A stretch of 32,000 bases of DNA, taken from assembly GCF_000172995.2 (NCBI RefSeq), contig NC_014731.1, positions 307,011 through 339,010 of the forward strand, in the 5' to 3' direction. How positions within the stretch are numbered: the stretch's first letter is position 1; each line of letters starts with the position of its first letter. This document shows positions 1 to 31,600 of the stretch, one piece after another. Both the position numbers and the translations under genes were made by a program. The notes under the pieces are model-generated. The model made no database searches. It was not told where the DNA came from and was given only the letters and a program-made list of their open reading frames with translations. The DNA comes from Halogeometricum borinquense DSM 11551 (GTDB lineage Archaea; Halobacteriota; Halobacteria; Halobacteriales; Haloferacaceae).

Positions 1-9
1 ACGGACAGC

Positions 10-114: not shown

Positions 115-264
115 ATTATTGACCGAACAACCCGTGTGTGGTGGTAACTCTGCCCAAACAGATAGCACGGGGGTTAAAGAAGATCAAACAAGCCTGGATC
201 AATGAGACAGAATCCTTGATTAAAAAGATCCCTTTAATGAAAGGAGACTGCCTGTGTACCACGC

Positions 265-3843: not shown

Positions 3844-4114
3844 TAATTGGGAGACACGAACTTCTTTCGGTGTTTGTCTGCAGTTTGAACAGCTATCGAA
3901 GAATGTCGACGACCCCCTTCGACATAGCTGGTTGAGTAATCATTCTGTGGAAAATAGGGCTGACAGAACTGGTTAGAGAACATTGCTGTACGGATACTCC
4001 TAAGCGTCGTGATGCGTGACTAACAACAAGTATGACTTACCCTCAGACGGATTCACTATCACATATGATACTCTGACGAAGTGTTAAATACAACCGTCAT
4101 TTTATTTCGTTTGG

Positions 4115-5035: not shown

Positions 5036-5036
5036 C

Positions 5037-5666: not shown

Positions 5667-5781
5667 GTTCTCCCACTATGGAGGCAGAAAAGCCCGGTCT
5701 AAGATAGTTGGAATGGTTAACCCAGTGAGTCACCCAACAAGCAAACAAAGTGAGTTCCCTAGGACCTAGCCCCGAGGCGAT

Positions 5782-6753: not shown

Positions 6754-6833
6754 CAGGCACCCATAGAGGCGGCTTGTATTTATGTTGTAAACATAATATG
6801 TCCGAATAGAATATACGTATTGATATTGAATAA
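6754..6833. promoter_or_regulatory. AT-rich divergent promoter region between the zinc-ribbon gene and the Rad3-like helicase gene
   Basis: An 80-bp spacer very rich in A/T (ttgtatttatgttgtaaacataatatgtccgaatagaatatacgtattgatattgaataaatg) offers several TATA-like elements on both strands. Confidence 0.4.
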
Positions 6834-9800: not shown

Positions 9801-10112
9801 GGGACGGAAGCAGGCGGTACCAATCAAAAATCCACGACCGAAGTGACGGCAACGAGTGATCCCTCGGCAACGTACTCGAAAATCTACTTTGGAGATGGTT
9901 CAAACCTCTCCAACTGGACTCCCATTAGGACCGATATCGCCGAGAACGAAATCATCCCTATCGTGCGTGAACACACAGTAGATGAAGAGAGCGGTACGGA
10001 GTACATCCAACTCAACTTCGCCAAGGAACTCTCAGTCAGTGGTTGGACAAAAGTCGATGCAGAGATTGTCCATACGCAAATCGAGCCGATAGCAAAACGG
10101 GCGAGGAAGTAG
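6834..10112 (+). CDS. XPD/Rad3/DinG-family SF2 DNA helicase (Fe-S cysteines absent) with C-terminal extension
   Basis: 1092-aa ORF. Motifs are FEGACGTGKTLAAV (Walker A), IVAVDEGHQIEE (DEAH-box variant), ICPHEAMAM...VVLGNYYHLFDP, VLMSATLQP, FTSSRGTITEGVDYDG, QAFGRVIRGSDEAGFRLLVDERY. An acidic linker and a ~90-aa terminal domain follow residue ~920. Confidence 0.9.
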   Translation: MPMPPSDDQNTGDSPHVPPWISDGETADPDIINVDSKHDSTESPDSLTRGVGPVTVSDLDRTWAPYFRYDSVYQDQIDAVDTFLELLSENGYYVFEGACGTGKTLAAVTGGIHAIRDQSTLTKTLDNVSGDFPDYSRLFVVTPLKQQLHQFVREMKGINASLPEAKAPVSTVVIRGRTDMMPYAYVDFPPFDRHGVGEKMDDLREMTRKLIKFDSDIPLDWPGDMSPPDFSKVDYNWEEASLTAEDHRERFRYDPVRAEAVTRIVKDMDPRGDESFDRLTVNGVETPYPDLVPHTNDVVDTDVLQRRGTGQLSVGLQGKFDPFYAGAFMEDGLPFDFHHADHHVFDQETLFQTAASRGICPHEAMAMLAGRAEVVLGNYYHLFDPQTRLLTDDKIGLLDSETIVAVDEGHQIEERVRDMLSMSLDIYTLDRAINDIEITRNYAVGDLAKTPTPNLNTSDARLAESLADSALDTVGNYSVTPEDLAEVEQLLRFAKQKLTVYGSDAVSERYQDISWQDAVERWGADPIENALSDPECPDESDEFLTDAIAEDDFDTRSFFKVYPAMLGTKFVFEALEEAGIHDRTPQGVEVGKFFKRWAAEGTVEYHREVVLDDRRKETIPTEFPDWVKAWTPKFQLFNCIPRDELQAVFGELGGGVLMSATLQPEEVYTEAVGINDIPFPTEDEEDDDAEETDVVTKPSAGTSHDNSDIRPTAFEQYPLRFPQENRVSLIADLPKFTNRNRGKRTTDPRQMKPVRKQYADLIEQAIAGRGNILVAMPNYREAEWAYNYLKKQGSSKRFHLDQSSSALETDETLESFFADGDAVIFTSSRGTITEGVDYDGEKLHGCVAVGIPLLPTNSKRIDAVIEAYDERIGVKSGFETALMIPAVRKVRQAFGRVIRGSDEAGFRLLVDERYGSTGWDGVNEYLSEQEREEFQTADPEFISQMISTFWDDVDEREREREAEDDPKKSDIETTRTTAPTDDIVQKSAVGTEAGGTNQKSTTEVTATSDPSATYSKIYFGDGSNLSNWTPIRTDIAENEIIPIVREHTVDEESGTEYIQLNFAKELSVSGWTKVDAEIVHTQIEPIAKRARK

Positions 10113-10360
10113 CAGATCAGGGTTCACCCATAGAAAAATCCGGTTCTGTAGTTTCGCTAGACCGAGACGCCGCACCTGCAATAAGATAACAGCCAATGAA
10201 CTGCATTGGAGAACTGCAGTTCTGTATTGTTAATCTGTGAAGGGATTAGAACTGATGAACGGGCTTCACGCGGAACGTATCTGGGTCAGCGTTCGGCGTC
10301 GTGGGCACCGTCCGGAAGAAACGCTGTCTGAGAATGAGAGTAGATCGCGAAAGAAGCATA

Positions 10361-11941
10361 CTATCCGTCTTCAGAATCGGTGATTACCTCCGTATATCCG
10401 AGCTTGATGTGGCGCCATTCGAGGTGTTTCGCATCCTGTTCGGCGGCCTTGAGCTTGGCTTGGTTCGCGAGCGCCTCTAGGTCAGCACCCGACCAGCCGT
10501 CAGTATGTTCCGCAAGACGCTTGACATGGTCTTCCGTCAATTTGTGTGGAACGTCCAGTACGGTCAGCTTGAGGATCTCTGTCCGTGCTTTGATGTCGGG
10601 GAGTCCGATCTCGAACTCACAGTCAATACGACCAGGACGAAGGATTGCTTCGTCCATCCCATCCCGCTGGTTCGTCGTCAGCAGCAGGATGAAATCCTGC
10701 TCCTCCTTGGTGAGCGCAGAGAGGAACATATTCGTGACCTTCTGATCCTCCGCGTGTGCGTTCTCACCCCGCGTGCGGTCGCTCAGTAGCTGTTCAGCCT
10801 CGTCGATGAAGACGACGCCGCCGAGGTGCTGCGCTTCCTCGAACAGCCGCTTGATGAGCTGTGGGCTCTTGTTAATGTACTCGTGGGTGAGGTCAGCCTG
10901 CGTCAGTTCGACGAAAGGCCGGTCAAGAGCGTTCGCGATCGCCCGAGCGAATAGCGTCTTCCCCGTCCCCGGCGGGCCTTGGAACAGGAGGCCACGCGAC
11001 GGCTCCACGTCGAACCGATCGTAGCTCTCGCTGTCCGACTGTAGCGGATTGATGACCTGACTGGAGAGTTCCTCCTTGACGTCGTTGTAGCCACCGATGT
11101 CTTCGAACCGAACCTCCGGTGGCTCCTCCCAGGGATACGCGAATGATTCTATCCCGGTGTCCTCATCGTCCTCATCGCCCTCGTCAAGGTACTCTTCGGT
11201 GCTGTCGGCGTCTTCTTCCGTCAAGGCTTCTTCCGCGTTCTGCTGGACTATTTTCACCAATTTCTCTTTGTCAATATCGGGCTCCGGATCACTCTCGGCA
11301 GGATTGATCGAGTGGTTGTGGTTCGATTGCTCCGCCTCCGACTTGTCGTTCGATTCAGTCGGTTGACTGGCCGGCGTGTCAGATCCAGTCTCTCCTACCG
11401 TGGAAGTGGAATCCGTTTGCCACTGGGTTTCACGATTCTTGGACTCAAATTCTGGGGAATACGTCCCGTATGGATGTTCTCCTCCGAAGGTTGCGTTTTC
11501 GTACTTTCTAGATCCGAAGGGGCTCGTATCCAGATACCTCTCAATTGGATTCCCGGTCATATGGGCGACGCATGCTGCGACTGCGGTCGCGATACCCGCG
11601 CTGGCGAACACCTCAGTATTGCCAGTCCCATTGATCCATTCGACAGGGGAATATCCTAGGGTAATCCCGTGGAGAGTAACGATTCCGACCGCGAAAGCGC
11701 CAGCAACGATGCCCGTGTGAATGGGCTCCCAGAGATCCACATGCAGGTGGATCAACGCGCTGAGAATGACCACTACCAATAGTAGCGCCGGAGCGTTTGT
11801 CATGCTGCCGAACGCAACCAGCAGTACGATCTGCAAGGTCATTCTCTTGAAGGGAAGCCGTTCTTCTTCTTCCCAGTAATAAAACCACGTCAGGCTCATC
11901 CAGATGTAGGCGATGGCAAATAGCAGTAAGCTAAGACTCAT
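10361..11941 (-). CDS. membrane-anchored AAA+ ATPase (classic AAA clade, no protease domain)
   Basis: The N-terminal ~135 aa hold 4-5 hydrophobic helices, followed by an acidic linker. The AAA module has GLLFQGPPGTGKTLFARAIANAL (Walker A), GGVVFIDEAEQLL (Walker B) and LLLTTNQRDGMDEAILRPGRIDCEFEIGLPD (sensor/Arg finger). Confidence 0.9.
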   Translation of the reverse strand: MSLSLLLFAIAYIWMSLTWFYYWEEEERLPFKRMTLQIVLLVAFGSMTNAPALLLVVVILSALIHLHVDLWEPIHTGIVAGAFAVGIVTLHGITLGYSPVEWINGTGNTEVFASAGIATAVAACVAHMTGNPIERYLDTSPFGSRKYENATFGGEHPYGTYSPEFESKNRETQWQTDSTSTVGETGSDTPASQPTESNDKSEAEQSNHNHSINPAESDPEPDIDKEKLVKIVQQNAEEALTEEDADSTEEYLDEGDEDDEDTGIESFAYPWEEPPEVRFEDIGGYNDVKEELSSQVINPLQSDSESYDRFDVEPSRGLLFQGPPGTGKTLFARAIANALDRPFVELTQADLTHEYINKSPQLIKRLFEEAQHLGGVVFIDEAEQLLSDRTRGENAHAEDQKVTNMFLSALTKEEQDFILLLTTNQRDGMDEAILRPGRIDCEFEIGLPDIKARTEILKLTVLDVPHKLTEDHVKRLAEHTDGWSGADLEALANQAKLKAAEQDAKHLEWRHIKLGYTEVITDSEDG

Positions 11942-12379
11942 GCTGTGTTCCTCCTTGAGTCGGGTGAACGGGAGAGAAGCCCAGCGCTCGGGCCGCAGGT
12001 GCGGGCACGCGCCGCCGGGAGTCGAGGTGGGCTTTCATCCGTTCTTACTACCTGTTTCTGAGATTTCAGTTATAAAGTTCCGCCTCTGAAAGGTAGATCG
12101 GAACTAGTACGGCGGCACGAACCGATGTTTGGAGAAGGAAGCCGAGAACGCGGCTACGAGTCACCGACTGCGAGTGTAACCGTTCGCAAAGCTGCGTCTT
12201 GGCTAACGCCATACACATCGACGAGGACGTTCGCGAGCTGGTCTCGAGATGGGTGCTCGCCGTTGTGCTCGTCCAGATAGTAGCTGATCGCTGGCCGGAC
12301 GCACCCACAAAGATACTCAGCTACGCCTCTATCTCTCTCCCGCGGAGTTGCGTAGCAAAAACAAACGAACAGCGACCGT

Positions 12380-13732
12380 CTACGCTCGACCGCTATTCCG
12401 CGCTAACTTGCGGCTCTGTCGAGCGATCTTGGAACCAGTTTTGATTCCGCGTTCAGTAAGCTGGCCGGCTTCAAGCAGGTCGGGGATGATGTAATCCTCA
12501 TAGGAGTCGATATCCATCCTGAGATCGTTCAGCCAGCGGGCTGGGAACGTCGAATCAGGCTTATGATCGACGCGGTAGAGACGCCATCCTGCACCAAATC
12601 GTGCTCCGACGATAGTGCCGGCGACAGCGCCGATCGTATCCGCATCACCGCCGTTGTTCACAGCGGAAACGATTGCGTCTTCGGCAGAGTCAGCGGTGAG
12701 GCCGTAGTAGAGCGCGGTCTCAAGCGTATCAAGGACGAATCCACTGTTCTCAAGGTCATCCTCACTGACCTCATCTGGAACCCGCTCCAGCCGTTCTACA
12801 AGTTCTGCGGGTGCGTCATCAGAGAGAGCCGTAAGAGCGACCTGCAGCGGTTCTTCTGAACCGTTGAGTATCGCTGCCAGCGTTAGGTTGAGGACCGCGC
12901 ATCCGTGCGTGCAACGCGGGTCTGCATGCGTGATTTCAGACGACTTCCGGCTCATCTCTTGGAGCATCTGTTGGTCGTCAGGGTACGCAATTGCGAGTGG
13001 AGCGCACCGCATTACACTCCCGTTCCCTGCAGCGTTGTTCGCACCACGAGATTCGAGCGTTTTGTGCCCGGCTTCACTAGCCGGGACACCATTCTGAAGC
13101 CACGTGATGGAACTAATCGTCGTCACGCCGACGTCGAATGGGTCCGACTCGAACCACTCCACCAACTGTTCAGCGTACCGGGCAGCGTTGAACTCACCGT
13201 GCGCAAGGAGGTTCGCAACTAGATAGAGTGCAAGGTTCGTATCGTCAGTAACCGTCCCTGCCGGCTGGTTGTGGCTACCGTCCCCGAAGAACTTGGTAAC
13301 GGTCCCGTGTTCCGCTTCGATTTCACTCGAGGACATGAACTCAACAGGACGCCCGAGCGCATCGCCACATGCGAGACCGAGGATGATACCGATAGAACGG
13401 TCGAGTCGCGTAATCAGTTCTTGGTCGTCGACGTCCCGCCCGATCGTGTTGTCTGCAGTTGCTTCCAGCCCCCACGTGCGCCGGATCCGCTCGGCCTGGA
13501 GAGAGAGTTGGCGACTGGACTGGTGCTCAGACGGCGTTTCGAGGAGGTCGAACCCGGTCAGGTCGGTGTACCTCGTGACGAGCTCGTAGTCGGACTTGAA
13601 GGGATGAAGTTCGTAGAAGTGACCTTCCGTCGGTAACGGCTTATCCAGGTCGCTGTATGGGGCGTGATCGTAGTTGTTCCCCTTAGTAAACGGATTCTCC
13701 GGAGGCATTGTAACATCCGACTCATCTTCCAT
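12380..13732 (-). CDS. ADP-ribosylglycohydrolase (ARH/DraG family) with ~115-aa N-terminal extension
   Basis: Motifs are GLACGDALGRPVEF, TDDTNLALYL, GNGSVMRCAPLAIAY and NGGDADTIGAVAGTIVGARFG. The start is uncertain: MEDESD at 13732, or 13759, or 13708. Confidence 0.85.
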   Translation of the reverse strand: MEDESDVTMPPENPFTKGNNYDHAPYSDLDKPLPTEGHFYELHPFKSDYELVTRYTDLTGFDLLETPSEHQSSRQLSLQAERIRRTWGLEATADNTIGRDVDDQELITRLDRSIGIILGLACGDALGRPVEFMSSSEIEAEHGTVTKFFGDGSHNQPAGTVTDDTNLALYLVANLLAHGEFNAARYAEQLVEWFESDPFDVGVTTISSITWLQNGVPASEAGHKTLESRGANNAAGNGSVMRCAPLAIAYPDDQQMLQEMSRKSSEITHADPRCTHGCAVLNLTLAAILNGSEEPLQVALTALSDDAPAELVERLERVPDEVSEDDLENSGFVLDTLETALYYGLTADSAEDAIVSAVNNGGDADTIGAVAGTIVGARFGAGWRLYRVDHKPDSTFPARWLNDLRMDIDSYEDYIIPDLLEAGQLTERGIKTGSKIARQSRKLARNSGRA

Positions 13733-13894
13733 ACCGAATCGGTAGATGACACTACACAATAATTACCTAGCTCATCACGGGGATCACGGACTGCAGCCGT
13801 TGGCTCCCCTGACTGAGAGGAATGCTCTGATGGCATCGGGATGTCAAGCGTCGAGATTGGGGAGTGTGCGGTTGGGACACATGCCCCAGTCTAA

Positions 13895-14080
13895 TTATGC
13901 CTCGCGTTGCAAGAGGAGACTCACTGTCGCGCCACGCTTGTCAGTAATCGGAGCGACGACATCCCAGCCATCTGCCCCGAGTTCGTTCAGTCGCCCAACC
14001 GGCGGGTCAACGTTGCCACCGAGTCCAGCCACCATGACGCTGCTGTCGACTTCGACAGTCCGATATTCGTAAGAGGGCAT
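13895..14080 (-). CDS. DUF4177 domain protein
   Basis: MPSYEYRTVEVD...LNELGADGWDVVAPITDKRGATVSLLLQRE has the size and the Y-E-Y / GW-(D/E)-(V/L)-V pattern of DUF4177. Confidence 0.65.
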   Translation of the reverse strand: MPSYEYRTVEVDSSVMVAGLGGNVDPPVGRLNELGADGWDVVAPITDKRGATVSLLLQREA

Positions 14081-14236
14081 GCGCATGCTCTGATGACGAC
14101 CAGTAGCAAACCTCTTGTGATTTTCGCAGTGGTGGAGAGGTGCTGCTGCACCACTGATCGGTACTCCGCGTTCACGCGGAGGAGGATGTCAACTGGCTCG
14201 GGTACCGAAGGGCGATATGCAGTCGTTCGCTCAACC

Positions 14237-14953
14237 ATGGGGACTATCAAAAGAGAGTATGATGTACCAGTATCGAGTTCAAAAGAGGCTCATGACGTGA
14301 CTCGTAAACCGCTCCCCACCGAACATCTCTCACCACTCGCTACGCTCGTGGATGAAGTACTTGCATGCGTTGGGTACGAGATGGCGGCCGCCACCGACAT
14401 CATCGACGACGCTGTCCCCGGCTACGGCGGCCTCTTCGACCCTGCGACGACCCCCGGAGAGTTGCGACACGCGCTCGACAGCGTGCTGGCATCAGACCTC
14501 AGCCGGCCTCCCGCCCCTGAGTCGACGGACGACTCGTTCATCCTTTACGTCGATGGCGGTTCACGCGGCAACCCCGGCCCAGCGGGTGCAGGCGCGGTCA
14601 TCATGGACGCCACCGAAACCGAACTCGCCCGGCTCGGCCGTCCTGTCGGCTCCCGGACGGGGAACAACACCGCCGAGTACGTTGCCCTCCAACTGGGACT
14701 TTCCGAACTACTGGCTCGCTACGACCCCCGGAGCCTAGAAGTACGCATTGACTCGATGACGGTCATCAGGGACGCCTGGGATGACGACGACCCGACAGAG
14801 CCAGGCGTCGAGACGTACAGCGAGGCGATCGCCACGGCACTCTTGAGCGTTCCAGAACACCGGTACACGCATCTCGCGGATAGTGACCCAAACCCAGCCG
14901 ATGCGCTGGCGACAGTCGGGGCCGATATCGCAGCATTAGGACCCGGATCGTGA
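14237..14953 (+). CDS. rnhA: ribonuclease HI (type 1 RNase H) with N-terminal extension
   Basis: FILYVDGGSRGNPGPAGAGAVIMD, GNNTAEYVALQLGLSEL and VRIDSMTVI supply the DEDD-type RNase H core. The start is ambiguous (14237, 14186 or 14093). The ORF-track start at 13907 overlaps the opposite-strand DUF4177 gene and was rejected. Confidence 0.85.
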   Translation: MGTIKREYDVPVSSSKEAHDVTRKPLPTEHLSPLATLVDEVLACVGYEMAAATDIIDDAVPGYGGLFDPATTPGELRHALDSVLASDLSRPPAPESTDDSFILYVDGGSRGNPGPAGAGAVIMDATETELARLGRPVGSRTGNNTAEYVALQLGLSELLARYDPRSLEVRIDSMTVIRDAWDDDDPTEPGVETYSEAIATALLSVPEHRYTHLADSDPNPADALATVGADIAALGPGS

Positions 14954-15060
14954 ACCGCCTCGCTTATCTGTAGAGCTTCATCGCCCGAGACCCCAGACCG
15001 AGCGCATCGTCAAGACGAACGATTGGTATCCCGTCAGCCGCAATGTACGGACACACTCGA

Positions 15061-15774
15061 ATGGACTCGCTACTCACGATCGATGACGAGCTATGCACTG
15101 GAACCATCGTCGACCGGCCCAATCGGTTCGTCGTCCGCGTTCGGTTCGAAGACGAGCCAGAACGTGTCTTCCTCGGGGACCCTGGCGCGCTCGAAGGGAC
15201 GATCGAACCGGGACACGAGATTCTCTGTGCACCAGTCGACGATCCGGAGCGGGCGACAGACTACGACGCTATCGCCGTCCATGTTGACACCGTGTACGTG
15301 AGCGTTCGACCGGCGTTAGCGAACGACCTCTTCGAGCGCGCACTCGGCCGCAACGCGATTCCTGCGTTCGACGGATACACCTGCCGAAAACGAGAACCTG
15401 CGCTGCCCGACCACGGCCGGACGGATTTCCGTCTCGAGACACCGAGCGGCAACACCGCCTCCGTCGAAATCAAATCCTGCACCCACGTCGAAGACCGCAT
15501 CGCCAAGTTTCCAGATCGGCAGACTGAGCGTGGTCGGCGTCACCTCCGAAGCCTCGAAGCGCTCTGTGAAGACGGCCACGAGACGCATGTCGTGTTCGTG
15601 GTGCAGCGACCTGACGTCGAACGCTTCCGACCCTACCGAGATGTCGATCCGGAGTTCGCCGAACTACTCAGCCAGGTGCAGGAAACTGGGGTGGGCGTAC
15701 ACGCGATAACCACCTCGTTTAAGCCGCCCCACTACGTGCTTCGGAAAGACGATCTGCCCGTGGACATCGACTGA
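15061..15774 (+). CDS. sfsA: SfsA-family protein (sugar fermentation stimulation protein homolog, nuclease fold)
   Basis: GTIVDRPNRFVVRV at the N-terminus, then RTDFRLE...ASVEIKSCTHVED...FPDRQTERGRRHLRSL, characteristic of SfsA. The start could also be 15043. Confidence 0.85.
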   Translation: MDSLLTIDDELCTGTIVDRPNRFVVRVRFEDEPERVFLGDPGALEGTIEPGHEILCAPVDDPERATDYDAIAVHVDTVYVSVRPALANDLFERALGRNAIPAFDGYTCRKREPALPDHGRTDFRLETPSGNTASVEIKSCTHVEDRIAKFPDRQTERGRRHLRSLEALCEDGHETHVVFVVQRPDVERFRPYRDVDPEFAELLSQVQETGVGVHAITTSFKPPHYVLRKDDLPVDID

Positions 15775-15822
15775 CAGGCGTCAGCTCAAGGATTGAATAA
15801 CGGCCAGTCCGTATGTGTTCGT

Positions 15823-16155
15823 ATGGCAAAGCGATTCGTTCGAGCCCGGCCGAAGCGCGATCAACTCCCGGACCTGCGGGAGCGACTCGAGAGCGGTGAG
15901 ATCGAAGCGATGGAGCCGTTCGGCCGTGCGATGACGAAGGCGTTAGAGAACGCGCGATTCGACCCGGCGAGTGGAGAGGCGATTTGGATCGAGGAGGATT
16001 ACTGCGTTCCACCACTCGCGATGGAACGGGCAGAAGTCCTTGACGACTACTTCACAGAGATCACGATCGTCGAGGAGGATGTCGACGAAGCCGCCGGGTG
16101 GCAACAGATAGACGACCTGCCGGGGTTGTGGGAGCAGATACTCGACCAAGCCTAA
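15823..16155 (+). CDS. acidic hypothetical protein
   Basis: MAKRFVRARPKRDQLPDLRERLESGEIEAMEPFG... has GC-rich, halophile-type acidic composition and no recognisable motif. Confidence 0.55.
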   Translation: MAKRFVRARPKRDQLPDLRERLESGEIEAMEPFGRAMTKALENARFDPASGEAIWIEEDYCVPPLAMERAEVLDDYFTEITIVEEDVDEAAGWQQIDDLPGLWEQILDQA

Positions 16156-17139: not shown

Positions 17140-17773
17140 CTACGAGTAGTGGATGAGTTGCTTGGTCCCCGAGGTCGCAAAGGAGACGGCGAGGACGACG
17201 AACGGCACGAGTAGCGCGCCGACGGCTCAGGAGAAGGCGACGACCGAAACCGCAGTGGCCGCCGACGCCAACGCGAGATAGACGCCGTAGGTGAGCGCCC
17301 GACGCCGAAGGGAACGGCGGATCGCATCGCCGCCGCCGTCGGAGAGGGAAAAGCGGGGTCTTCTCGGTCCCGCGGATGGTCGGCGTCCCCGCATCGACGG
17401 ACAGCTCGCCGTGGACCGTCAGCCGGGCCCCCTCGGGGACGGCCTTCGACAGGAAGTAGTCGTTCTTCAGGTCGATGTCCGGGTCATCGACGACGACGCC
17501 TCGGAGCCGTTCGAGCGGCAGTTCCGTCGAGTGATCAGCCAGCTGGACGTACGGCGAATTCCTGAGGTAGACGTGCCCGTCCGGCTCGGGGGGAAGCCGA
17601 CCGGCCGTACCGCCGCCAGCCGGTCGGCGTCGTGGACGTCTCGCAGCCACCCCGGGTCGACCCGGAGCTTCCCGTTCTCGGTCGCGACGGTGAACGATCC
17701 GAACTCGACGCCGGAGGCGAACCGCACGACCGTCGCTCGAAAGGTTTCGGCCAGCTCTTCTCCGTTGGCTCAT
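17140..17773 (-). pseudogene. decayed gene for a membrane-anchored protein (at least 2 frameshifts and an in-frame TGA)
   Basis: Protein-like translation is only obtained by frame hopping. The segments are (M/V)RFASGVEFGSFTVATENGKLRVDPGWLRDVHDADRLAAV, then EPDGHVYLRNSPYVQLADHSTELPLERLRGVVVDDPDIDLKNDYFLSKAVPEGARLTVHGELSVDAGTPTIRGTEKTP, then SLSDGGGDAIRRSLRRRALTYGVYLALASAATAVSVVAFS*AVGALLVPFVVLAVSFATSGTKQLIHYS*. The first shift is at a G6 run (17588-17593) and the TGA is at 17227-17229. Confidence 0.6.
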
Positions 17774-18306
17774 TTCGTAGATGAGTTATTGACCGCAGTT
17801 GTACCGTTCACCGTAGTTGAGTTGGTCAATAAATTCCGTTGGACAGTAGACCTGCAGTTCCACGTCTCACAGATCTAAGTACGGTCTGCTGGAGTGATTG
17901 AGATTATTCGAGGGGGCAGAAAAGATTTCCAACGAACTTCCTTGTTCCTACAGATTGCAGATGAGAGAATGGAACTGATGTACGAGTCCACTCTATTAGA
18001 AAAATATTATCCATACTATTTTGCATATTTTTAAGTAATATCATCGATCCGACGAGGGTCGTGAAGAATACGATAACAACAACAGCTCTTCAGAGAGTCC
18101 TTGGCTCAGCATTTCCTCCAATAGCAACGCCAGCGAGCATAGCTACAATCAATGCAGTAAATAATTCAATAGAACTGAAATAATAACGGTCTCACATTCC
18201 TATTTCCCTGATTCGCGATTGTGTCGAGTCTATCTCTCTGGGATGGATTCGCGGTAGTCTGTCATTTCTAAAATGTATGATCTGCTCCAGTATTGTGGTA
18301 ATCTAC

Positions 18307-18720
18307 AGTTGGAAAGCGGCAGGTGTAGGCAGTAGTGCGTTCTCATATGCATTCTTAGTTATTTCACAGTACCCGAGTACTATTTAATATTAAAATAGTG
18401 TATCTACTGCTATAGTTCTTCTATATAGTAGTGTACATCGTAGATATACGAACAATCTGGCGATTGATTAGCGTCGGATTCAAAAATGTCGTGAAGTGTG
18501 GGTGGTCGAAGCGAAATTTGTCACCGATACCGTGTTTATTCTCCAATGTAGTTCTCCTGGAGACCTCCCGTCCGTCGTGTTCTGGGCTTGTGGCGTGCCA
18601 GCGAGTAAAATCGAGCAATCCGAATCGTGGGTACGTAGACGTTAATCATGTCATATGTTCTATCATTACAATATTATTCTTGTAAGGCCGGAATATGCCA
18701 GCCTCCATTCAGAATTCCAG
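18307..18720. repeat. left arm of a long imperfect inverted repeat (partner 23517-23919)
   Basis: By-eye alignment to the reverse complement of 23517-23919. Identical blocks include 18698-18720 (23/23), 18512-18535 (24/24) and 18571-18604 (33/34), plus gtaggcagtagtgcgttc and atttaatattaaaata. Weak similarity continues to about 18275 and about 18750. Confidence 0.85.
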
Positions 18721-18796
18721 TCGAACTGGAATCTTCTTCTGATCGCTTCGTACAGACCAATATCGAACGAAAACAAAAATAAAAAATTCGCGGCTG

Positions 18797-18833
18797 TAGC
18801 TGACAGGCAGTAATTGTTATATTTCGTCAGCTA
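18797..18833. promoter_or_regulatory. candidate operator: 8-bp perfect inverted repeat bracketing a TATA-like element upstream of the wHTH regulator
   Basis: TAGCTGAC (18797-18804) and GTCAGCTA (18826-18833) are separated by 21 nt containing tgttatattt. The site lies 25-60 nt upstream of the regulator start at 18858. Confidence 0.35.
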
Positions 18834-18857
18834 AGACAAGTGGCCGCAAGAGAAAAT

Positions 18858-19625
18858 ATGGAGACAACAATCCGAAAGCGCCATGACATCCTAGAGGAAC
18901 TCGTCGATAGCTCGCAGTCAAAGCCAGATTTGGTCTCTCAGATGGACCTTTCGAGGTCAACAATCGACCGAGGAGTGAACGAGTTGCTTGAGCACGACTG
19001 CATAACGAGGACTGGTTCGACCTACGAAGCCACGGAAACCGGTCGGTTAGCCATCAGAGAATACGAGCGGTACCTCCGGTTTGTAGAAACCATAAAAGCA
19101 TCACCGAAAATACTCAACGAAGTTCCGACGAATACGTTTGACACCGTTTTCTTACGAGATGCAGATTTCGATCTCGTTGACGACCAGCAACCGTGGGCGG
19201 TGCTCGAGAAGAGTACAGAACTTATGAAAAACGCGAAATCTCTGAAAGGCACGGTCCCCGTCATTTTCCAGCGGCATTTTGCTGACTTGACTGACTCCTT
19301 TGACACTGGCAAGGAAGTGGAACTAATCTGGGACAACTCCCTGTATCACTCGCTGAGTGAGGAAATGCAAGAGATGATAGCTACTTTTCAGGAGTACGAC
19401 CAAGCTACAATGTACCGAACTGATTTAACAGATTCATACGCAATCTGGATACTGGACTCTCCGGAAGGAAATCACGCTAGTATCGCGGTCTTCACGAATG
19501 GCGGAATTCGTGGAATCATCCGCAATGATACTTGTGCCGCGGTTGATTGGGCGCTGTCTCAATACGAACAGCGGAAAGAAAGTGCGGTAAGTATCACGTC
19601 GAGACACACCCACAACTGTAACTGA
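18858..19625 (+). CDS. winged-helix transcriptional regulator (HTH plus DUF1724/FilR1-like C-terminal domain)
   Basis: The N-terminal wHTH is RHDILEELVDSSQSKPDLVSQMDLSRSTIDRGVNELLEHDCITRTGSTYEATETGRLA. The C-terminal part (...YAIWILDSPEGNHASIAVFTNGGIRGIIRND) fits the haloarchaeal/methanogen DUF1724 regulator architecture. An alternative GTG start lies at 18840. Confidence 0.75.
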   Translation: METTIRKRHDILEELVDSSQSKPDLVSQMDLSRSTIDRGVNELLEHDCITRTGSTYEATETGRLAIREYERYLRFVETIKASPKILNEVPTNTFDTVFLRDADFDLVDDQQPWAVLEKSTELMKNAKSLKGTVPVIFQRHFADLTDSFDTGKEVELIWDNSLYHSLSEEMQEMIATFQEYDQATMYRTDLTDSYAIWILDSPEGNHASIAVFTNGGIRGIIRNDTCAAVDWALSQYEQRKESAVSITSRHTHNCN

Positions 19626-19629
19626 AAGA

Positions 19630-20121
19630 CTACTTAGAATTCGCGGTCGTTTGGTCTTTCGGCACTATGTAGTCGTCCACCATTGTTATCTCCCCGTTGG
19701 CCTGTTGGTGCCGCACGAGAATGAAGGTGTCACTGTCAGGAACCCACTCGAACTGAAGCACCAGGAGATACCGGTACAGAGAACGGTTTTGTTGAGCAGA
19801 TTCGACGTCTGCTTCCAGTCGGACATCGATGGTAGTGCGAGCCTCATTATTTACCGTAGGCACGTGCGCATAGAGATCGGTAAGTTTTCCGCTGGAGACA
19901 AAGTTACCCGTGATAACGAGTTCTGCTTCGTTTCGTGAGTAGAGTATCTGTGCTGTGTGGTCAGTGTCCGCCGTTTGGTTCTTTCTCCAAGTGACCTCGC
20001 GTGATTCAAGATTGATTGACCGCTCATTCGGGTTCTCGTCAAGTACTGTACATCCCGCAAGCGTTGTTAGTAGTACAGTGCCAACCGTACGCCGACTGAG
20101 AACGTGATCTCGCTCACTCAT
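19630..20121 (-). CDS. Tat-type lipoprotein, function unknown
   Basis: MSERDHVLSRRTVGTVLLTTLAGC has a twin-arginine followed by a lipobox (LAGC). The start was moved from the ORF-track 20223 to the ATG at 20121. Confidence 0.7.
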   Translation of the reverse strand: MSERDHVLSRRTVGTVLLTTLAGCTVLDENPNERSINLESREVTWRKNQTADTDHTAQILYSRNEAELVITGNFVSSGKLTDLYAHVPTVNNEARTTIDVRLEADVESAQQNRSLYRYLLVLQFEWVPDSDTFILVRHQQANGEITMVDDYIVPKDQTTANSK

Positions 20122-20311
20122 ATCTACGGTTTTGCATGTCATGGGGGATTTATCTTTTCTTTCAGGGTTAGTGATGTGCCTCACTCTCTGTGGGAATGAC
20201 CACCTGCTGACAAACTCTCTCAAAGGATACCTAAAAGTATAACAAGATGAAGATTCAGTCAGGAATTAAAATAAAGAAATCAGCAAAATCATGATGAAAG
20301 TGTCGTATACA

Positions 20312-21376
20312 ATGTCACGAGACAGCGAAAGCGACTTGGCAAAAAATGGCACAGGAGTGACTCGACGAGGCGCGCTGAAAGGCCTCGGTGGAGTAGTAGT
20401 TGGTAGTGCCGCACTTGGGTCGAGTGCAAGCACTGGTGCTGTAGCATACGAAACTGACCCGAACGCAGATTCTAACAAATGCGGACCCAGACCGAGCCCA
20501 TGGAAAGATCATGGTGAATATGATACGCAGTTCCCATCCGGAACTACCCATCACGTATGTTCAGTCCTAGATCTCACTCACTCCCATTACGAACCCAAAG
20601 ACGAAAACCAAAATATAGACGACTACTGGATACACGAGTTTCAATTTAGTAGTCAGGTCAGTGCAGTGGAGACCGAGTCAGGGGATCCCACCGACAAGCT
20701 CCGGTCTCAAGGAGTTCGGATCAAGAATAACAACACAACGAAAGTCCCAGTTCGTGCAGCGAAAGGCGAGCAAAACAACGCCCTAGCACCTCAGTCCAAC
20801 AATCCAGACAATGTCGAGGACTTTAATGGTGCAGTTATCAGCGCAGCCGGTCTTGCAATCACGCTTGCAGAAAAGACTCAGGCGGCGCTCGTACTGTCTG
20901 GTGCCCAACTTGCGAACTCGCTTGGACAGATAGCGTACGACAAAAAGACTCCCGATGACTCCGCGTCATTCATCTGGGAAGGCGGATACAGTGGAATTGA
21001 GAGGGGTGCCCATCAGGTTGTTTTCAGCGTCGCCAACTATCTAACGTCCTCATCTGACACACCGCCCGTCCAGATCAGTGCGCACGCAGGTCAAGCCTAT
21101 ACTGGTTGGGATCTCAAATTCTCCAAGTGCGACGTCTCAACATCTGGAAAAGATGGGTCCTCCAGTGAGGCGCAGGGACCGATGGGAGATCCGCGGAAGA
21201 TGTCTAAAGCAGAAAAAGAGGAATTCGGGATCAAGGAGGTTCAGCGATCACAACTTGCTAAGGAGGTTGGAGAACACCGTATACAAACTGAGAATGAACG
21301 GGTCTACGTCGCAGAAGACCCGCCAATCTCTGCTACTCCGATGAGTCGGGAGGAAAGTAAAAAACTCTGGGAGTAG
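20312..21376 (+). CDS. Tat-secreted protein, function unknown
   Basis: MSRDSESDLAKNGTGVTRRGALKGLGGVVVGSAALGSSASTGAVA matches the Tat consensus (T-R-R-x-x-L-K). No catalytic motif was recognised. It is transcribed divergently from the lipoprotein gene. Confidence 0.75.
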   Translation: MSRDSESDLAKNGTGVTRRGALKGLGGVVVGSAALGSSASTGAVAYETDPNADSNKCGPRPSPWKDHGEYDTQFPSGTTHHVCSVLDLTHSHYEPKDENQNIDDYWIHEFQFSSQVSAVETESGDPTDKLRSQGVRIKNNNTTKVPVRAAKGEQNNALAPQSNNPDNVEDFNGAVISAAGLAITLAEKTQAALVLSGAQLANSLGQIAYDKKTPDDSASFIWEGGYSGIERGAHQVVFSVANYLTSSSDTPPVQISAHAGQAYTGWDLKFSKCDVSTSGKDGSSSEAQGPMGDPRKMSKAEKEEFGIKEVQRSQLAKEVGEHRIQTENERVYVAEDPPISATPMSREESKKLWE

Positions 21377-22600: not shown

Positions 22601-23040
22601 CCGCCTGCGCCTGAAGACGCAGGAAGATGGCCATGTCTCACTCCGTGCGACGACGGGCGAGGTGCGTCCATCCAGCGATGATGGCTATAGCGACTACGAG
22701 GAATCCCCATGTGAAATGAGAACTGAAAGTACCTCGACGATACCAAACTTAACGCGCGTCGGAAAATCTCTCATACGAATTGCTTCGATAGCGGACATAC
22801 ATTAATTCGGCTCTATTGAAATTCTCAGCCGCTGATAATTTTCTGGGGCCGTGCTGAATACAGGGCGTGAGTCGGTCGCTGACAGGTGAATATCACTGTA
22901 CTCGGTGAAGATCGAACGATTCGGACACCTCCATGGAGCCAATGGCTGCTCAGCTAATTCGTGGATATTATTTGGATTGTTGTATGTGACGATAATATAT
23001 AATGTAACTATTTTTATTGTCGGGCTAGAGACTAAACGCA

Positions 23041-23290
23041 ATGTCGGCCGAAAACACAGGAGGAACTGTCGAACGGAGGAGCCTTTGGAGAATTTTGAAA
23101 AAGTACGGCGCCGATTATAAATGATATTTCATTGTAGGAGTCATCACAACCGCATTGACAAATCTCATTGGCCATGCTGCTCCGTTAGTGCTAGGTTCTG
23201 CAATCAATTCGATCTTCACCGATAGTGCTCCGCTGAACATTCCATTCCTTCCTGCGGGCTTGGTACCTACCGTAGAAACCAGCGGAGAAA
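23041..23290 (+). pseudogene. ABC exporter N-terminal (transmembrane domain) fragment with in-frame TGA
   Basis: MSAENTGGTVERRSLWRILKKYGADYK*YFIVGVITTALTNLIGHAAPLVLGSAINSIFTD... The TGA at 23122-23124 sits where Trp is expected. Protein-like sequence is lost after about 23280. Confidence 0.5.
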
Positions 23291-23516
23291 TCAGGATAGC
23301 AAATGAACATCACCACCAGCCCTACGACCTACGGATACATCAAAGTCTCTGCCCAAGAAGAAGACCATGACAGCGTCTGAGAGTACTTCCTTTCCGACAT
23401 CACCGAGAGTCAGACTGAGTCTGTCTCCCACGACGAGGAATTCAAAAACGACAAGGTGACAGTCTCGATCACGATGGAGAACGTCGCCCTCTGCGACCGG
23501 ACAAATTCTAATTCGG

Positions 23517-23919
23517 CTGGAATTCTGAATGGAGGCTGGTAGATTCCACCCTTACAAAAATGCTATTGTAATGGTGTAATAGATAACACGATTGACGTCC
23601 ACGTATCCATAATCTGGAGTGATCAATTACCCTCGCTGGTACGCCACAAGCCCAGAACACGACGGTCGGGTCTTAGGGGGAACTACATTAGTGGACACAC
23701 GGTATCGGTGACAAATTTCGATTCGATTCTCCACTACATTTTTGAATTCTATCCTAACGAAGAGCAAGATTGCTCGTATATATCGGACTTATACCACCAT
23801 ACAGAGGCATTATAGTAGTAGATATGTTATTTTAATATTAAATATCATCCAAGTATGGTGGTACAACCAGAGAACACATCTAGGAACGCACTACTGCCTA
23901 CATCTGCCAATTCCCAACT
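23517..23919. repeat. right arm of the long imperfect inverted repeat (partner 18307-18720)
   Basis: Reverse complement aligns to 18307-18720. Identical blocks are 23517-23539, 23697-23720 and 23632-23665 (33/34), plus the AT palindrome tttaatattaaa at 23831-23842. Confidence 0.85.
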
Positions 23920-23966
23920 CTTGCTGATTGGATTGGTGGGAGCCATAGTGATTCGGGTGACTGGCG

Positions 23967-24253
23967 TATGATTCCATTATACGAAGGAATATATCTTGAA
24001 GAGGGTGAGCGTGGTGAGATAGAATTTTTTCAGAGACGGTGAATCAACCGAGACCAACGATTTCCCGCGGAGATTTGAGGATCCCAAAAAGAACGCTATT
24101 GTCCAATATCTCTCAACCACTGAACCGACAGAAAGTGGGCGAGAGCGACGAGCAATGGTCTTTGCCCCAAAAAGAGATAGGACCGAAGAAATTGCTGAAA
24201 TGCTTGCTGACCATATTAGAGATGACTGGTCTTCTACGGAGTGGTTTGCGTGA
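23967..24253 (+). pseudogene. gene remnant with helicase-C-terminal-like segment, frameshifted at a T6 run
   Basis: MIPLYEGIYLEEGERGEIEFF is followed, in the next frame, by RDGESTETNDFPRRFEDPKKNAIVQYLSTTEPTESGRERRAMVFAPKRDRTEEIAEMLADHIRDDWSSTEWFA*. The two frames join if one T of the 24025-24030 run is removed. RAMVFAPKRDRTEEIAEML resembles the start of a helicase RecA2 domain. Confidence 0.3.
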
Positions 24254-24313
24254 GTCTCGCGCTCTCGAAGAGTCGAGAGACACCGTTGAAGCAACCGTAC
24301 GGAATCTCCACGA

Positions 24314-24871
24314 ATGCACTTCCTGCCGAAATATCTAGGAGATGCCGTCGTCGTGACTGATCCCGAACCCATCCATAAGGGTAGCATCGAGATCACGGCA
24401 CTTAGAAAACTCGTGTACCGGCTCGCTCCAGCAGACCGCGAGTACGATCACGTTGCTGAAGCTGCGTCTGCCGTCGTTGAACGATTCCAGAGCCTCGAAG
24501 AGGAAAGTGAGCAGCTCAGGGATAGACTCGACAAACTTGGCGACATTGGTGAACGGAAGACATCGAAAGAGGAGAAGATAGCGGCTATCGTCACCTTCGC
24601 AGCCCGAAAGAAAGGGGAGAAACCCGCTATCACGGTCAAGCCAAAGACGATCAAAGGCCTAATCGATTTCTCTCGTCGCTATGCCTACGATTTAGTTGAC
24701 GATATGCACGATGAGTATGAGTGGGCACACGACCCGACACAAGTCGATCAGTACGGGATGCTAGAAAAAGATACCTCGCAGAAGGGCATTCTCATCGACT
24801 TCGACGGAGTTCACGGAGACCCCGTACCTGTGAACAAGTTCACCACTGGAACAGCCGAACAGGGCCGCTGA
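24314..24871 (+). CDS. acidic hypothetical protein (possibly the tail of the degraded upstream gene)
   Basis: 185-aa ORF with halophile-like composition and a coiled-coil-like stretch (VERFQSLEEESEQLRDRLDKLGD). It is in the same frame as the 24023-24253 remnant and separated from it by two TGA codons (24251, 24287). Confidence 0.5.
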   Translation: MHFLPKYLGDAVVVTDPEPIHKGSIEITALRKLVYRLAPADREYDHVAEAASAVVERFQSLEEESEQLRDRLDKLGDIGERKTSKEEKIAAIVTFAARKKGEKPAITVKPKTIKGLIDFSRRYAYDLVDDMHDEYEWAHDPTQVDQYGMLEKDTSQKGILIDFDGVHGDPVPVNKFTTGTAEQGR

Positions 24872-28973: not shown

Positions 28974-29638
28974 TGTAAGTGATGGCTTAACCTGCTTCCA
29001 CTGGCGTGTTACGATTACGGTCCTATTTTTGACAATGGATGCTGTTCACCAATGTCTGTTGGAGCCTGCGATAATTTTATGACAGATACACATCAATTAT
29101 TATGATATTATGGGTGGAGGAAGTGGCGGTTATCATCGGCGGGGTGGAGGAGGGTCGGATGGCAGTGTAGGGTGCCTCTAGGGAGAGCGTGGGGGATGTC
29201 GATGCGGATATCCGCACTCTGTCCCCGTGTAGTCGGTATTTACAACACTGGATATATGTGAGTAAAACAGACAATCCCGCCGACATCGAAAGCAAATGTC
29301 CTCGAAGTTCTTTGAGGAGGCCTGGACGATGCTCTGCGAGGTGTTCATCGCGTATTCGTTTCCGCACCTGAGAGACTACCTCATGACGACTGACTGTTGT
29401 AGTTGACCAGATCACTATGAGTGGATTCCAGCGCTCAGGCACGGAAGGAAATCAAACCTGGTAGGCACGAGAGATTGTTTCGGTGCGTGTTAGGTTTTCA
29501 GTCCCCTATAAAACCCGCTGGAAGGCTGTATTTCCATTCTCATATTCCCTCACAATAGTATTCAATTCCATTATGACTCCCACATCCTGAAATGTAACCC
29601 AACAAATTAATTACTGCCTACACTTACTTGACAATTGC

Positions 29639-30742
29639 ATGTCAGAACGTGCTCAGGACGTATCTGACGAGGACGGCTATGTTGAAAAGTTGCGAGACAA
29701 AATTGGCTCCGGTGGTGGCTGTGCTGAGGCTTGGCAAGCAGCACAAGAGATCCGTGATTCTGGTTCGGTAAATGTGGGCCGGCGAAAACTACTGACTGGT
29801 ATCGGGGCCTCTCTCCTATTTGGAGTCAGTGCGACTGACGCCGTTGCTGCCACCAGTGGAGAAACATCGGAAGACTTGGAAACTGAGGTTACAGAACTAG
29901 ACGGGGCGAAAAAGAAAGAGGTCATCAAAACCGCCCAAGCAGACAGTTCCGTGCAGTCGGCGAGAAATAAACTACAGTCCCGAGGGTGGACAGCGAATGT
30001 TGACGAAGCTACAGCACACCAATCAGTCCATGAGGGCGAAAAGAACCTGACTGTCAGGATCCCGTACCAGAACAGCGATGCGTCTCCAAGTGGAGTTCAG
30101 GAAGATGCCGGTATTATCTGGAGCACCTGGAGTAGTGGCCTGACGCACGGTTTCATCAGTCGGCGTGAGGTCCGGAAAGGCGCATCCCTGTCCAAAGATG
30201 CGAAAGAAGCGTACGAGCAGAGCGATATTGACCTCCAATCTACTGACACGGTCCCTGTTGAGATCTCATATACGATCTTCAATGAGGATCAGTCGGACTC
30301 ATCAGATAGTGCCACAGTTCAGTCCACCAAGGGAACCGAAAATACGGGAGAGGACTCTTCTAATTCCCTGATTGTTCCTGTGCAGAAATCGTCGTCGAGG
30401 TCGGATTCGGTTAACTCTGGAGCCTCAGTTCAGTCTGCCGGGGAAGCCACAACCCAGGGCATTGCTGACTGCGCCTGCACCGCAACTCTGGGAACGAATC
30501 CTGTAACAGCATGTGCCCCCTGTGGTACCGTCAAGCCCGACTGCCTGGTACAGATAATCAGTAACTATGGGTCAGAAATCGGTGCTTGTGCTGGTTGCGC
30601 CACCGTTGCGGCCCTTACCAGTGGTGCGGGAGCCATTGCGGGAGGATGTCTTCCCTGTCTGGGGACGATTGGAGAAACTGTAGCTAGTGGTAAGATCAAT
30701 AGCGTTTGTTGCTGGTGTAACTTTGGCGGAGACATTATCTGA
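29639..30742 (+). CDS. Tat-signal protein with Cys-rich hydrophobic C-terminal region (halocin-precursor-like architecture)
   Basis: GRRKLLTGIGASLLFGVSATDAVAA is a Tat signal, and an in-frame GTG at 29774 would give a canonical short n-region. A ~230-aa acidic/Ser-rich middle part follows. The last ~93 aa contain 12 Cys in a Gly/Ala-rich context: DCACTATLGTNPVTACAPCGTVKPDCLVQ...GACAGCATVAALTSGAGAIAGGCLPCLGTIGE...SVCCWCNFGGDII. Confidence 0.8.
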   Translation: MSERAQDVSDEDGYVEKLRDKIGSGGGCAEAWQAAQEIRDSGSVNVGRRKLLTGIGASLLFGVSATDAVAATSGETSEDLETEVTELDGAKKKEVIKTAQADSSVQSARNKLQSRGWTANVDEATAHQSVHEGEKNLTVRIPYQNSDASPSGVQEDAGIIWSTWSSGLTHGFISRREVRKGASLSKDAKEAYEQSDIDLQSTDTVPVEISYTIFNEDQSDSSDSATVQSTKGTENTGEDSSNSLIVPVQKSSSRSDSVNSGASVQSAGEATTQGIADCACTATLGTNPVTACAPCGTVKPDCLVQIISNYGSEIGACAGCATVAALTSGAGAIAGGCLPCLGTIGETVASGKINSVCCWCNFGGDII

Positions 30743-30781
30743 CTAAACAACCTAATTCTTCTTAGAACGCCTACACCAGAT

Positions 30782-31066
30782 ATGGACCAGAAGCGTGTGA
30801 CTGGTATCGGATTTTTTGTATTTGGTCTCGCCGTCACAGCCTACAGCTACGTGACAGCCATCCCGTTCCTGGTATCACACACAGTAAACTTGTGGAGTGT
30901 CGGTGCTCTCATCATTATGATTTCAGGGGTCTGCCTCTCTCTCATTGGGATCTACTCCACAATTTCCCCAGAAGGTCGGTTTGCAGTAAATACGAGATAT
31001 CCTCTCATATTTGGAACTATTCTATTTATCTCTGCTATATTGATATTATTGGATATAATCACGTGA
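30782..31066 (+). CDS. small 3-TM membrane protein downstream of the Cys-rich precursor
   Basis: 94-aa ORF starting 40 nt after the upstream stop, on the same strand. Hydrophobic helices are IGFFVFGLAVTAYSYV, LWSVGALIIMISGVCLSLIGIY and PLIFGTILFISAILILLDII. Confidence 0.6.
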   Translation: MDQKRVTGIGFFVFGLAVTAYSYVTAIPFLVSHTVNLWSVGALIIMISGVCLSLIGIYSTISPEGRFAVNTRYPLIFGTILFISAILILLDIIT

Positions 31067-31467: not shown

Positions 31468-31600
31468 ATGATCGCCTGCTACACTCGGGTCTCAACAGAG
31501 GATCAGAACCTCGACCGACAAATTTGCCACTCGAGACAACTCGTCACCGCAGGGAGTTATAGATCTGTCTGGCTGCCGACCTCTGCGATGGTCAGTGCCA
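31468..31600 (+). pseudogene. serine recombinase (resolvase/invertase) N-terminal remnant
   Basis: MIACYTRVSTEDQNLDRQ carries the catalytic-serine motif (Y-x-R-V-S-T-x-x-Q). Recognisable sequence is lost after ~20 codons, and the region overlaps the 3' end of the convergent membrane-protein gene. Confidence 0.5.

Follow-up and report, generated by a model that had tools for sequence, protein, structure and literature searches.

Known halocin precursors and the architecture of C499_05960

Precursor sequences are known for three halocin families only, H4, C8 and S8; in the C8 system the HalC8 peptide lyses sensitive cells, halU, halR and halT1-T3 flank halC8, being uncharacterised and not conserved everywhere, and the cleavage mechanism and protease for the precursor are still unknown (bioRxiv 10.64898/2026.07.27.741052). 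S8 is said to share a superfamily with C8 (Makarova et al., 2019, as cited in bioRxiv 10.64898/2026.07.27.741052). HalI, the other part of the C8 precursor (ProC8), stays membrane-associated and probably sequesters the halocin (PMC3387779). Here we present a gene from a 32,000-nucleotide (nt) stretch of Halogeometricum borinquense DSM 11551 (contig NC_014731.1, positions 307,011 to 339,010; hereafter the window), the 367-amino-acid (aa) product of which is 100% identical to the NCBI hypothetical protein C499_05960 of the same strain. Judged from its sequence, C499_05960 is likely to be a halocin-type (archaeocin) precursor exported by twin-arginine translocation (Tat), in which the ProC8 chassis carries a different warhead, and the gene, with its tail of 12 cysteines, ranks as a good candidate for a novel antimicrobial of archaeal origin. 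Five consecutive parts were distinguished in the precursor (window coordinates; RR stands for the arginine pair of the Tat signal):

29639..29779, forward strand: N-terminal module ahead of RR (aa 1-47), a predicted helix-loop-helix with the GGGCAEAW motif at aa 25-32 (nt 29711-29734)
29780..29854, forward strand: Tat signal or signal-anchor (aa 48-72), R48 R49 K L L followed by a 16-residue uncharged hydrophobic region (h-region) and ending in AVAA
29855..30283, forward strand: middle domain of alpha/beta type (aa 73-215), corresponding in divergent form to the pro-region domain HalI / Hac8_like_N
30284..30457, forward strand: variable linker rich in Ser, Thr and acidic residues (aa 216-273), with a conserved SLVVPVxK strand and ending in ATTQ273, the predicted processing site
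30458..30739, forward strand: candidate mature peptide (aa 274-367), 94 aa with 12 Cys

A first-pass annotation of the same DNA had described a twin-arginine signal, which is indeed there (GRRKLLTGIGASLLFGVSATDAVAA, aa 47-71; hydrophobic segment aa 51-73), and a long acidic/Ser-rich central region. The latter description fits the 58-aa linker at aa 216-273 (22 Ser and Thr, nine Asp and Glu; variable in the subfamily alignment), where the SSSRSDSVNSGASVQSAGEATTQG string ends at Q273/G274, but not aa ~81-215, which form a conserved folded domain with an alpha/beta fold in the AlphaFold2 (AF2) model (predicted local distance difference test, pLDDT, 75-94). Missing from that annotation was the conserved 47-aa module ahead of RR, for which AF2 gives helices at residues 11-22 and 28-40, at low confidence.

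A word-index search yielded nine homologues with 29-67% identity, from Halorubrum, a Haladaptatus replicon and hypersaline metagenomes. Conserved in the subfamily alignment are SGGGCAEAWEAAQE ahead of RR, RR and the h-region, the middle domain (GIIWSSWSxGLTHGFISKRE) and the C-terminal domain, all 12 tail Cys being retained in the nine homologues. Concerning the halocin C8 family, it is operationally defined by TIGR04449 (halocin_C8_dom, 24-bit cut-off) and PF22862 (Hac8_like_N, 27-bit cut-off). The Halocin_C8 profile search that had been proposed as a check came out empty, with no TIGR04449 (E <= 1) or PF22862 match in C499_05960, which is therefore filed outside the C8 family; Pfam and NCBIfam scans of this protein and of the 94-aa protein encoded downstream gave no significant match either. 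A family profile searched against 1.84 billion representatives retrieved 207 relatives at E <= 1e-3, mostly of 260-350 aa and matching profile positions ~5-170 only. Among the best 146 of these 207, TIGR04449 was found in nine (best E = 1.2e-15), PF22862 in seven and NF040679 ('halocin C8 precursor-like') in three. Seven relatives were individually verified as ProC8-type; all of them exceed the 24-bit cut-off of TIGR04449, and PF22862 falls on their residues ~85-190, in four above its 27-bit cut-off and in three below it. As positive controls, P0089, P0097 and others scored 26-58 bits with TIGR04449, and ProC8-type controls gave E = 2.5e-11 to 7e-3 with PF22862. Alignment of the subfamily with the seven ProC8-type precursors (hhalign, 99.4%, E = 2e-21, 139 columns) set aa 7-150 on ProC8-type residues 9-149, a stretch that runs from the pre-RR motif through the Tat signal into the initial part of the HalI-type domain. 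C499_05960 thus shares its architecture with ProC8 by homology, beyond mere analogy, and at the level of profile comparison its front half is demonstrably homologous to the halocin C8 precursor.

The combination of GGGCxExW, RR and a Cys-rich hydrophobic tail is common across the superfamily. In C499_05960 the motif lies at aa 25-32, RR at aa 48-49 and the h-region at aa 51-73, and the protein ends in a hydrophobic domain within the 55-100 aa by which the superfamily is delineated here, with an even number (at least six) of conserved Cys. G25, G26, G27, C28, E30, W32 and R39, as well as RR, are invariant among 27 diverse precursors; RR is nearly invariant in the subfamily alignment, and GCxExW occurs in 89/132 full-length relatives, 9-31 aa ahead of RR. 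Tat-signal hidden Markov models (HMMs) matched many relatives and, weakly, C499_05960. GGGCxExW, the invariant Cys of which is residue 28, a thirteenth Cys besides the 12 of the tail, is the most conserved element of the whole superfamily and is N-terminal to RR, so that it would lie on the cytoplasmic side if the signal is uncleaved. Possible roles of this element are in membrane anchoring or in a step that precedes or accompanies Tat export.

Unusual forms were seen among the relatives. At 667 and 614 aa, respectively, P0048 and P0056 are roughly double the normal size; they combine the usual N-terminal module and a class-0 tail with a much longer middle region. Truncated or frameshifted copies were located at 5974-6423 of L013 (Halorubrum sp. 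CSM-61), at 5986-6450 of L015 (Natronorubrum sulfidifaciens) and in P0009; these keep the N-terminal module and have lost the Cys-rich tail, which suggests frequent decay or, possibly, 'immunity-only' orphan genes. A pattern scan of genome contigs with middle-domain peptides of the subfamily returned no confirmed locus, the source species included; either the representative genome is without the gene or the region is masked.

The cysteine-rich tail and its predicted processing junction

The hydrophobic, Gly/Ala-rich C-terminus holds 12 Cys, as the first-pass annotation had counted them (residues 278, 280, 292, 295, 302, 317, 320, 337, 340, 357, 358 and 360), in CxC, three CxxC and CCxC arrangements. 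The tail (aa 274-367, 94 aa) has an isoelectric point of 4.1, a grand average of hydropathicity of +0.80 and, computed for cleavage after Q273, a mass of 8,960 Da reduced and ~8,948 Da with six disulfides (~8.95 kDa). It is homologous to the largest tail class of the superfamily, an 8/10-Cys class (hhalign 98.4%, E = 7e-15), in the alignment of which an 8-Cys core (C22, C29, C44, C47, C64, C67, C84 and C87 in mature-peptide numbering) is invariant or nearly invariant across 40 members. The H. borinquense subfamily adds an N-terminal extension of ~18 residues with three more Cys, plus a CC doublet. This class is widespread in haloarchaea, and no curated Pfam or NCBIfam model covers it. By composition-corrected BLAST, 130 Cys-rich tails fell into ~37 clusters at E < 1e-8, one of which is the HalC8 type, and their Cys counts peak at 8, 10, 12 and 14. 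Clustering with uncorrected blastp lumped nearly all tails together because of the Cys/Gly/Ala bias and was dropped.

The AF2 model of the tail is helical (mean pLDDT 60). Foldseek against the PDB found no match for the full model and none at E <= 10 for the C-domain model, both being of low confidence outside aa 81-215. Run against PDB sequences, the class profile gave weak matches to the LIM, RING and eL40 zinc-binding domains (best E = 0.016, a paxillin LIM domain). No significant profile or fold match to zinc-finger, LIM or RING domains was obtained, and the weak matches were judged artefacts of CxxC spacing, with metal binding kept as a less likely alternative. A structural or enzymatic Cys-rich domain, which the first-pass annotation had named as part of what would refute its proposal, was seen in none of the Pfam, NCBIfam, PDB-profile and Foldseek searches.

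Ahead of the first Cys, a [STVI][STAIVP]Q motif is present within 14 residues in 56 of 130 precursors, against a background of 5.2% of windows (~8-fold); it occurs across tail types, at a modal distance of 5-6 residues from the first Cys (range 3-8). In C499_05960 the junction reads ATTQ273|GIADC278. For HalC8 itself we take the mature N-terminus to be DIDITGC, and the HalC8-like protein of Natrinema gari reads ...TPA|DIDITGC, with the presumed mature start six residues ahead of the first Cys, that is, in the same register, with no Q. The HalC8 peptide sequence used here matched one database protein only (88% identity) and served solely to place the mature start. Cleavage after Q273 is predicted on this basis and would release a 94-aa peptide. 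The conserved [ST]xQ junction motif offers a concrete lead on halocin precursor processing.

Candidate immunity components and genomic setting

Across 84 full-length relatives the similarity of the middle domain follows the tail type (same/different ratio 1.78), that of the N-terminal helix-loop-helix (HLH)/Tat module is independent of it (ratio 1.04), and pairs with a similar middle domain and a different tail are almost absent. Such co-variation is the pattern expected of a cognate binding domain, so that the middle domain is a candidate immunity or chaperone domain, and the equal conservation of the N-terminal module, whatever the tail, argues for a generic role in export or anchoring. A further candidate for immunity lies next to the precursor gene, where the following elements were located:

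29604..29613, forward strand: AT-rich TATA-like element (AAATTAATTA), read by eye, its centre ~30 nt 5' of the ATG
29639..30742, forward strand: precursor gene (367 aa, C499_05960)
30782..31066, forward strand: orphan open reading frame (ORF) of 94 aa with ~3 transmembrane (TM) segments, a candidate accessory gene (immunity-like or export helper), 39 nt past the precursor gene
31468..31524, forward strand: remnant of a resolvase (serine recombinase), first 19 codons, found by tblastn

Both ORFs are where the first-pass annotation had placed them, on the same strand, with the gap between them corrected from 40 to 39 nt; the smaller does have ~3 hydrophobic segments, as described. Its sole homologue, at 98% identity, is again from H. 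borinquense, and comparison of the 94-aa ORF and the window flanks with the loci of close homologues (tblastn, tblastx) gave no conserved neighbour. Small TM genes were surveyed in another 34 loci, taken from metagenomes and from named genomes of haloarchaea (28 dereplicated intact precursors), with ORFs of at least 150 aa in the same loci as controls. Under a strict criterion (ORF of 58-100 aa with at least two TM segments, same strand, start -4 to +41 nt past the stop), a small 2-3-TM ORF lies directly 3' of 11/28 precursors and of 2/181 controls (Fisher p = 2e-9); under a looser one (up to 300 nt away, on any side and strand) such an ORF accompanies 15/24 precursors and 31/143 controls (p = 1e-4). 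This positional enrichment gives statistical support to the earlier idea of an immunity or export helper, a role for which the 94-aa ORF is a candidate, and the recurrence of a small membrane protein beside these precursors points to a second immunity or export component. Among close relatives, the small TM gene is divergent and upstream in the Halorubrum-type loci L001 and L004, upstream in Halapricum L009 and 267 nt downstream of the precursor in Haladaptatus L003. Homology among the small TM proteins does not reach beyond a tail type (L003 with L009, E ~ 1e-12; L001 with L004; L026 with L028; L014 with L031), and the 94-aa ORF matches none of those surveyed.

The locus is AT-richer than the core genes, as had been noted (GC content 0.49-0.53 against 0.55-0.63 in core stretches of the window), and GC at third codon positions is 0.50 in the precursor gene and 0.47 in the 94-aa ORF, versus 0.78 in the adjacent binding-protein gene. 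The precursor ORF is identical across three assemblies, and the position of the TATA-like element would fit a leaderless haloarchaeal transcript. The recombinase remnant suspected earlier proved to be residues 1-19 of a resolvase (PF00239), 100% identical to the intact 216-aa protein of H. borinquense strain ELS19 (L005, 11830-12480). DSM 11551 is without ~1.3 kb that is found in ELS19 (GCA_004150395.1); the deletion breaks the sequence at window position 31523, between flanks of 99.5-99.8% identity, and the loss removes all but 19 resolvase codons, immediately 3' of the precursor/94-aa pair. The precursor gene is further surrounded by ORFs without family assignment and, on the other strand, by a gene for a Peripla_BP_2 binding protein; it is the only superfamily gene in the window.

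The family is patchily distributed over Halogeometricum, Halorubrum and Haladaptatus. In Halorubrum L001 (AOJO01000035) the precursor has Kiwa (KwaA/KwaB) and an orc1/cdc6-like gene on one side and, on the other, a D12 methyltransferase, a PLD/SNF2 helicase and a restriction-modification gene of Eco57I type (flanking gene sets at 9189-11889 and 1-7085), with an integrase also in the neighbourhood, and these surroundings are a defence island. The Haladaptatus homologue stands beside methyltransferase fragments and a homologue on a metagenome contig beside a DDE transposase, just as the H. borinquense gene stands beside the resolvase. Together with the low GC at third codon positions and the patchy spread, these neighbourhoods indicate that the precursor gene behaves as a self-contained, horizontally mobile conflict module.

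Elsewhere in the window, positions 265-16000 hold a 1192-aa UvrD-type helicase with an N-terminal extension of ~440 aa, a 1092-aa DinG/XPD-type helicase, an AAA+ ATPase, an ADP-ribosylglycohydrolase, an RNase H/RVT_3-like protein and SfsA, genes which may form a further defence or repair cluster. Two more AT-rich patches (GC 0.42-0.49) lie at ~17500-20500 and ~23000-24500; a FilR1/HVO_A0261-type transcription regulator is encoded at 18840-19625 in such a patch, and the remaining patch ORFs have no family assignment.

Proposed mechanism, alternatives and comparison with known systems

If C499_05960 is a halocin-type precursor, transcription would probably be leaderless and possibly joint with the 94-aa ORF, and RR with the h-region (aa 48-72) would target the precursor to the Tat translocase. 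With an uncleaved signal, the 47-aa module would be cytoplasmic and the h-region would anchor the pro-region in the membrane, in agreement with the reported membrane association of HalI, leaving the HalI-like middle domain (aa 73-215) at the outer membrane face. By analogy with ProC8, and given the conserved junction motif, a protease would cut the linker near ATTQ273|G274 and free an acidic, hydrophobic peptide of 94 aa (~8.95 kDa) with 12 Cys, probably forming up to six disulfides, which would make it very stable. This peptide would attack the envelope or membrane of competing haloarchaea, and the producer would owe its protection to its own pro-region, which co-varies with the type of warhead, to the small membrane protein of the downstream ORF, or to both.

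Several observations weigh against such a role. At E <= 10 none of the ten subfamily members matched PF22862 or TIGR04449, and the tail has no detectable relationship to the HalC8-domain alignment (hhalign 0.3%, E = 0.23); given this unrelatedness, the first-pass wording of a 'diverged or new member' of the C8 kind of system holds as a new warhead class on an N-terminal half homologous to ProC8 (the hhalign match given above). A 36-aa HalS8 sequence reached only 3.4 bits against the class-0 HMM, and this lead was dropped. The structure models are of low confidence for the N-terminal module and the tail, and a cytoplasmic module ahead of RR squares awkwardly with direct binding of an exported peptide. 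The genes halR, halU and halT1-3 (ABC transporter) are not among the neighbours in the window. Around the closest homologues the small TM gene takes up another position and is non-homologous to the 94-aa ORF, and the co-variation comparison is biased since the relatives were retrieved largely via the N-terminal module. The CxxC-x16-CxxC spacing could equally bind metal, and in the literature no experimental test of any member of the tail class was found.

That spacing leads to an alternative which we regard as unlikely, namely that C499_05960 is a secreted or membrane-anchored Cys-rich protein, metal-binding (zinc-ribbon/LIM-like) or redox, exported folded with its cofactor and releasing no toxic peptide. 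The core C-x2-C-x16-C-x2-C-x16-C-x2-C does recall zinc fingers, the class profile has its weak LIM, RING and eL40 matches, and Tat is the classical route of cofactor-bearing proteins. These PDB matches are non-significant, however, and reflect Cys spacing only; no fold match accompanies them, and the segments between the Cys are hydrophobic and predicted helical, unlike zinc knuckles. Export by Tat is also a poor guide to a cofactor in haloarchaea, which secrete most of their proteins by this route with or without one (PMC3387779). Moreover, the N-terminal half shares its ancestry with a proven halocin precursor, and the extreme polymorphism of the tails, together with the mobile and defence islands, fits a conflict system better than a housekeeping protein.

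Polymorphism on one chassis would also suit a released peptide that serves as a signalling or kin-recognition molecule (quorum sensing, self versus non-self), in which the tails would be identity tags and small membrane proteins would act as their receptors. Both the middle domain and the small TM partner follow the tail type, as the parts of a recognition system would. This seems to us a shade less probable again: lysis of sensitive cells is what the only relatives so far characterised (HalC8) bring about, the locus has neither a sensor kinase nor a regulator linked to it, and tags of this kind are not known from haloarchaea. About as improbable as a metal-binding protein is a decaying relic, an intact ORF that is no longer expressed or processed within a degrading mobile element, next to a chance hydrophobic ORF in AT-rich DNA. 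The adjacent resolvase cut to 19 codons, the surrounding ORFs without family assignment, the truncated copies elsewhere in the superfamily (L013, L015, P0009) and the lack of any homologue of the 94-aa ORF outside the species would all be in keeping with decay. The 367-aa ORF is nevertheless full length, with every conserved motif and the 12 Cys intact; it does not vary among the three assemblies, its TATA-like element is in place, and a small ORF with at least two TM segments turns up at such a position by chance in ~1% of cases in the same kind of DNA (2/181).

With the halocin-type precursor as the preferred reading, the locus offers an explicit candidate for a further halocin class, a peptide of ~8.95 kDa with 12 Cys that would begin near G274 and come with a predicted determinant of self-immunity, and bears on the question of how producers protect themselves. 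The C8 family is said to have been 'substantially expanded' by Makarova and colleagues in 2019. Searches based on TIGR04449 or PF22862 miss most superfamily proteins, of which ~6% (9/146) carry TIGR04449. With at least 37 tail types among 130 representatives, the precursor chassis of halocin C8 seems to serve again and again for warheads unrelated to one another. A survey of July 2026, which counted 82 archaeal C8 homologues, required TIGR04449 (bioRxiv 10.64898/2026.07.27.741052), so that C499_05960 would be left out of it. Tentatively, and with less confidence than for the precursor itself, we propose that the HLH-Tat-HalI-like module is a universal haloarchaeal chassis for dozens of unrelated Cys-rich warheads, each type having a co-varying pro-region domain and often a small, rapidly evolving membrane partner of its own. 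This would be a polymorphic-toxin-like arrangement with two candidate layers of immunity, in which the 12-Cys class would be a new class of halocin. The biology would extend a known theme and adds no new principle.

Compared with ProC8 (HalI plus HalC8) of Natrinema sp. AS7092, C499_05960 is likewise a single-gene precursor of ~280-370 aa, with the helix-loop-helix motif ahead of RR (GGGCxExW), a twin-arginine signal, an alpha/beta pro-region domain, a variable linker and a C-terminal hydrophobic Cys-rich peptide of 76-94 aa. It differs in its tail, which has 12 Cys on an 8-Cys core versus 10 Cys in the HalC8 domain, in a longer, Ser/acid-rich linker and in having a small 3-TM ORF instead of halR, halU and halT1-3 as neighbours. 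Halocin S8 resembles it in that a small and hydrophobic peptide containing Cys derives from a precursor with a Tat signal. HalS8 is a 36-aa microhalocin with four Cys, excised from inside a 311-aa Tat precursor, whereas the tail of C499_05960 is C-terminal and has 12. HalH4 and HFX_0892 (HapP) of Haloferax mediterranei are similar in that they, too, are secreted by a haloarchaeon as precursors whose activity requires proteolysis outside the cell, the active fragment being released by halolysin HlyR4 (PMC12893001), and by analogy a halolysin is a plausible type of protease for the cleavage of C499_05960. Both are larger, not Cys-rich and, as far as tested, unrelated in sequence, and HapP releases an N-terminal helical fragment; the protease-precursor system of HFX_0892 (mBio 2026), tried as a relative, was set aside as a different protein family. 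Functional analogies extend to bacteria, where class II bacteriocin operons carry a small, fast-evolving membrane immunity gene immediately 3' of the toxin gene, and where polymorphic toxin systems join one conserved delivery module to many unrelated C-terminal warheads. Neither has a sequence relationship to C499_05960, for which export would be by Tat and not by a leader-peptide ABC transporter or Sec, and which, unlike these systems, carries a candidate immunity domain in cis.

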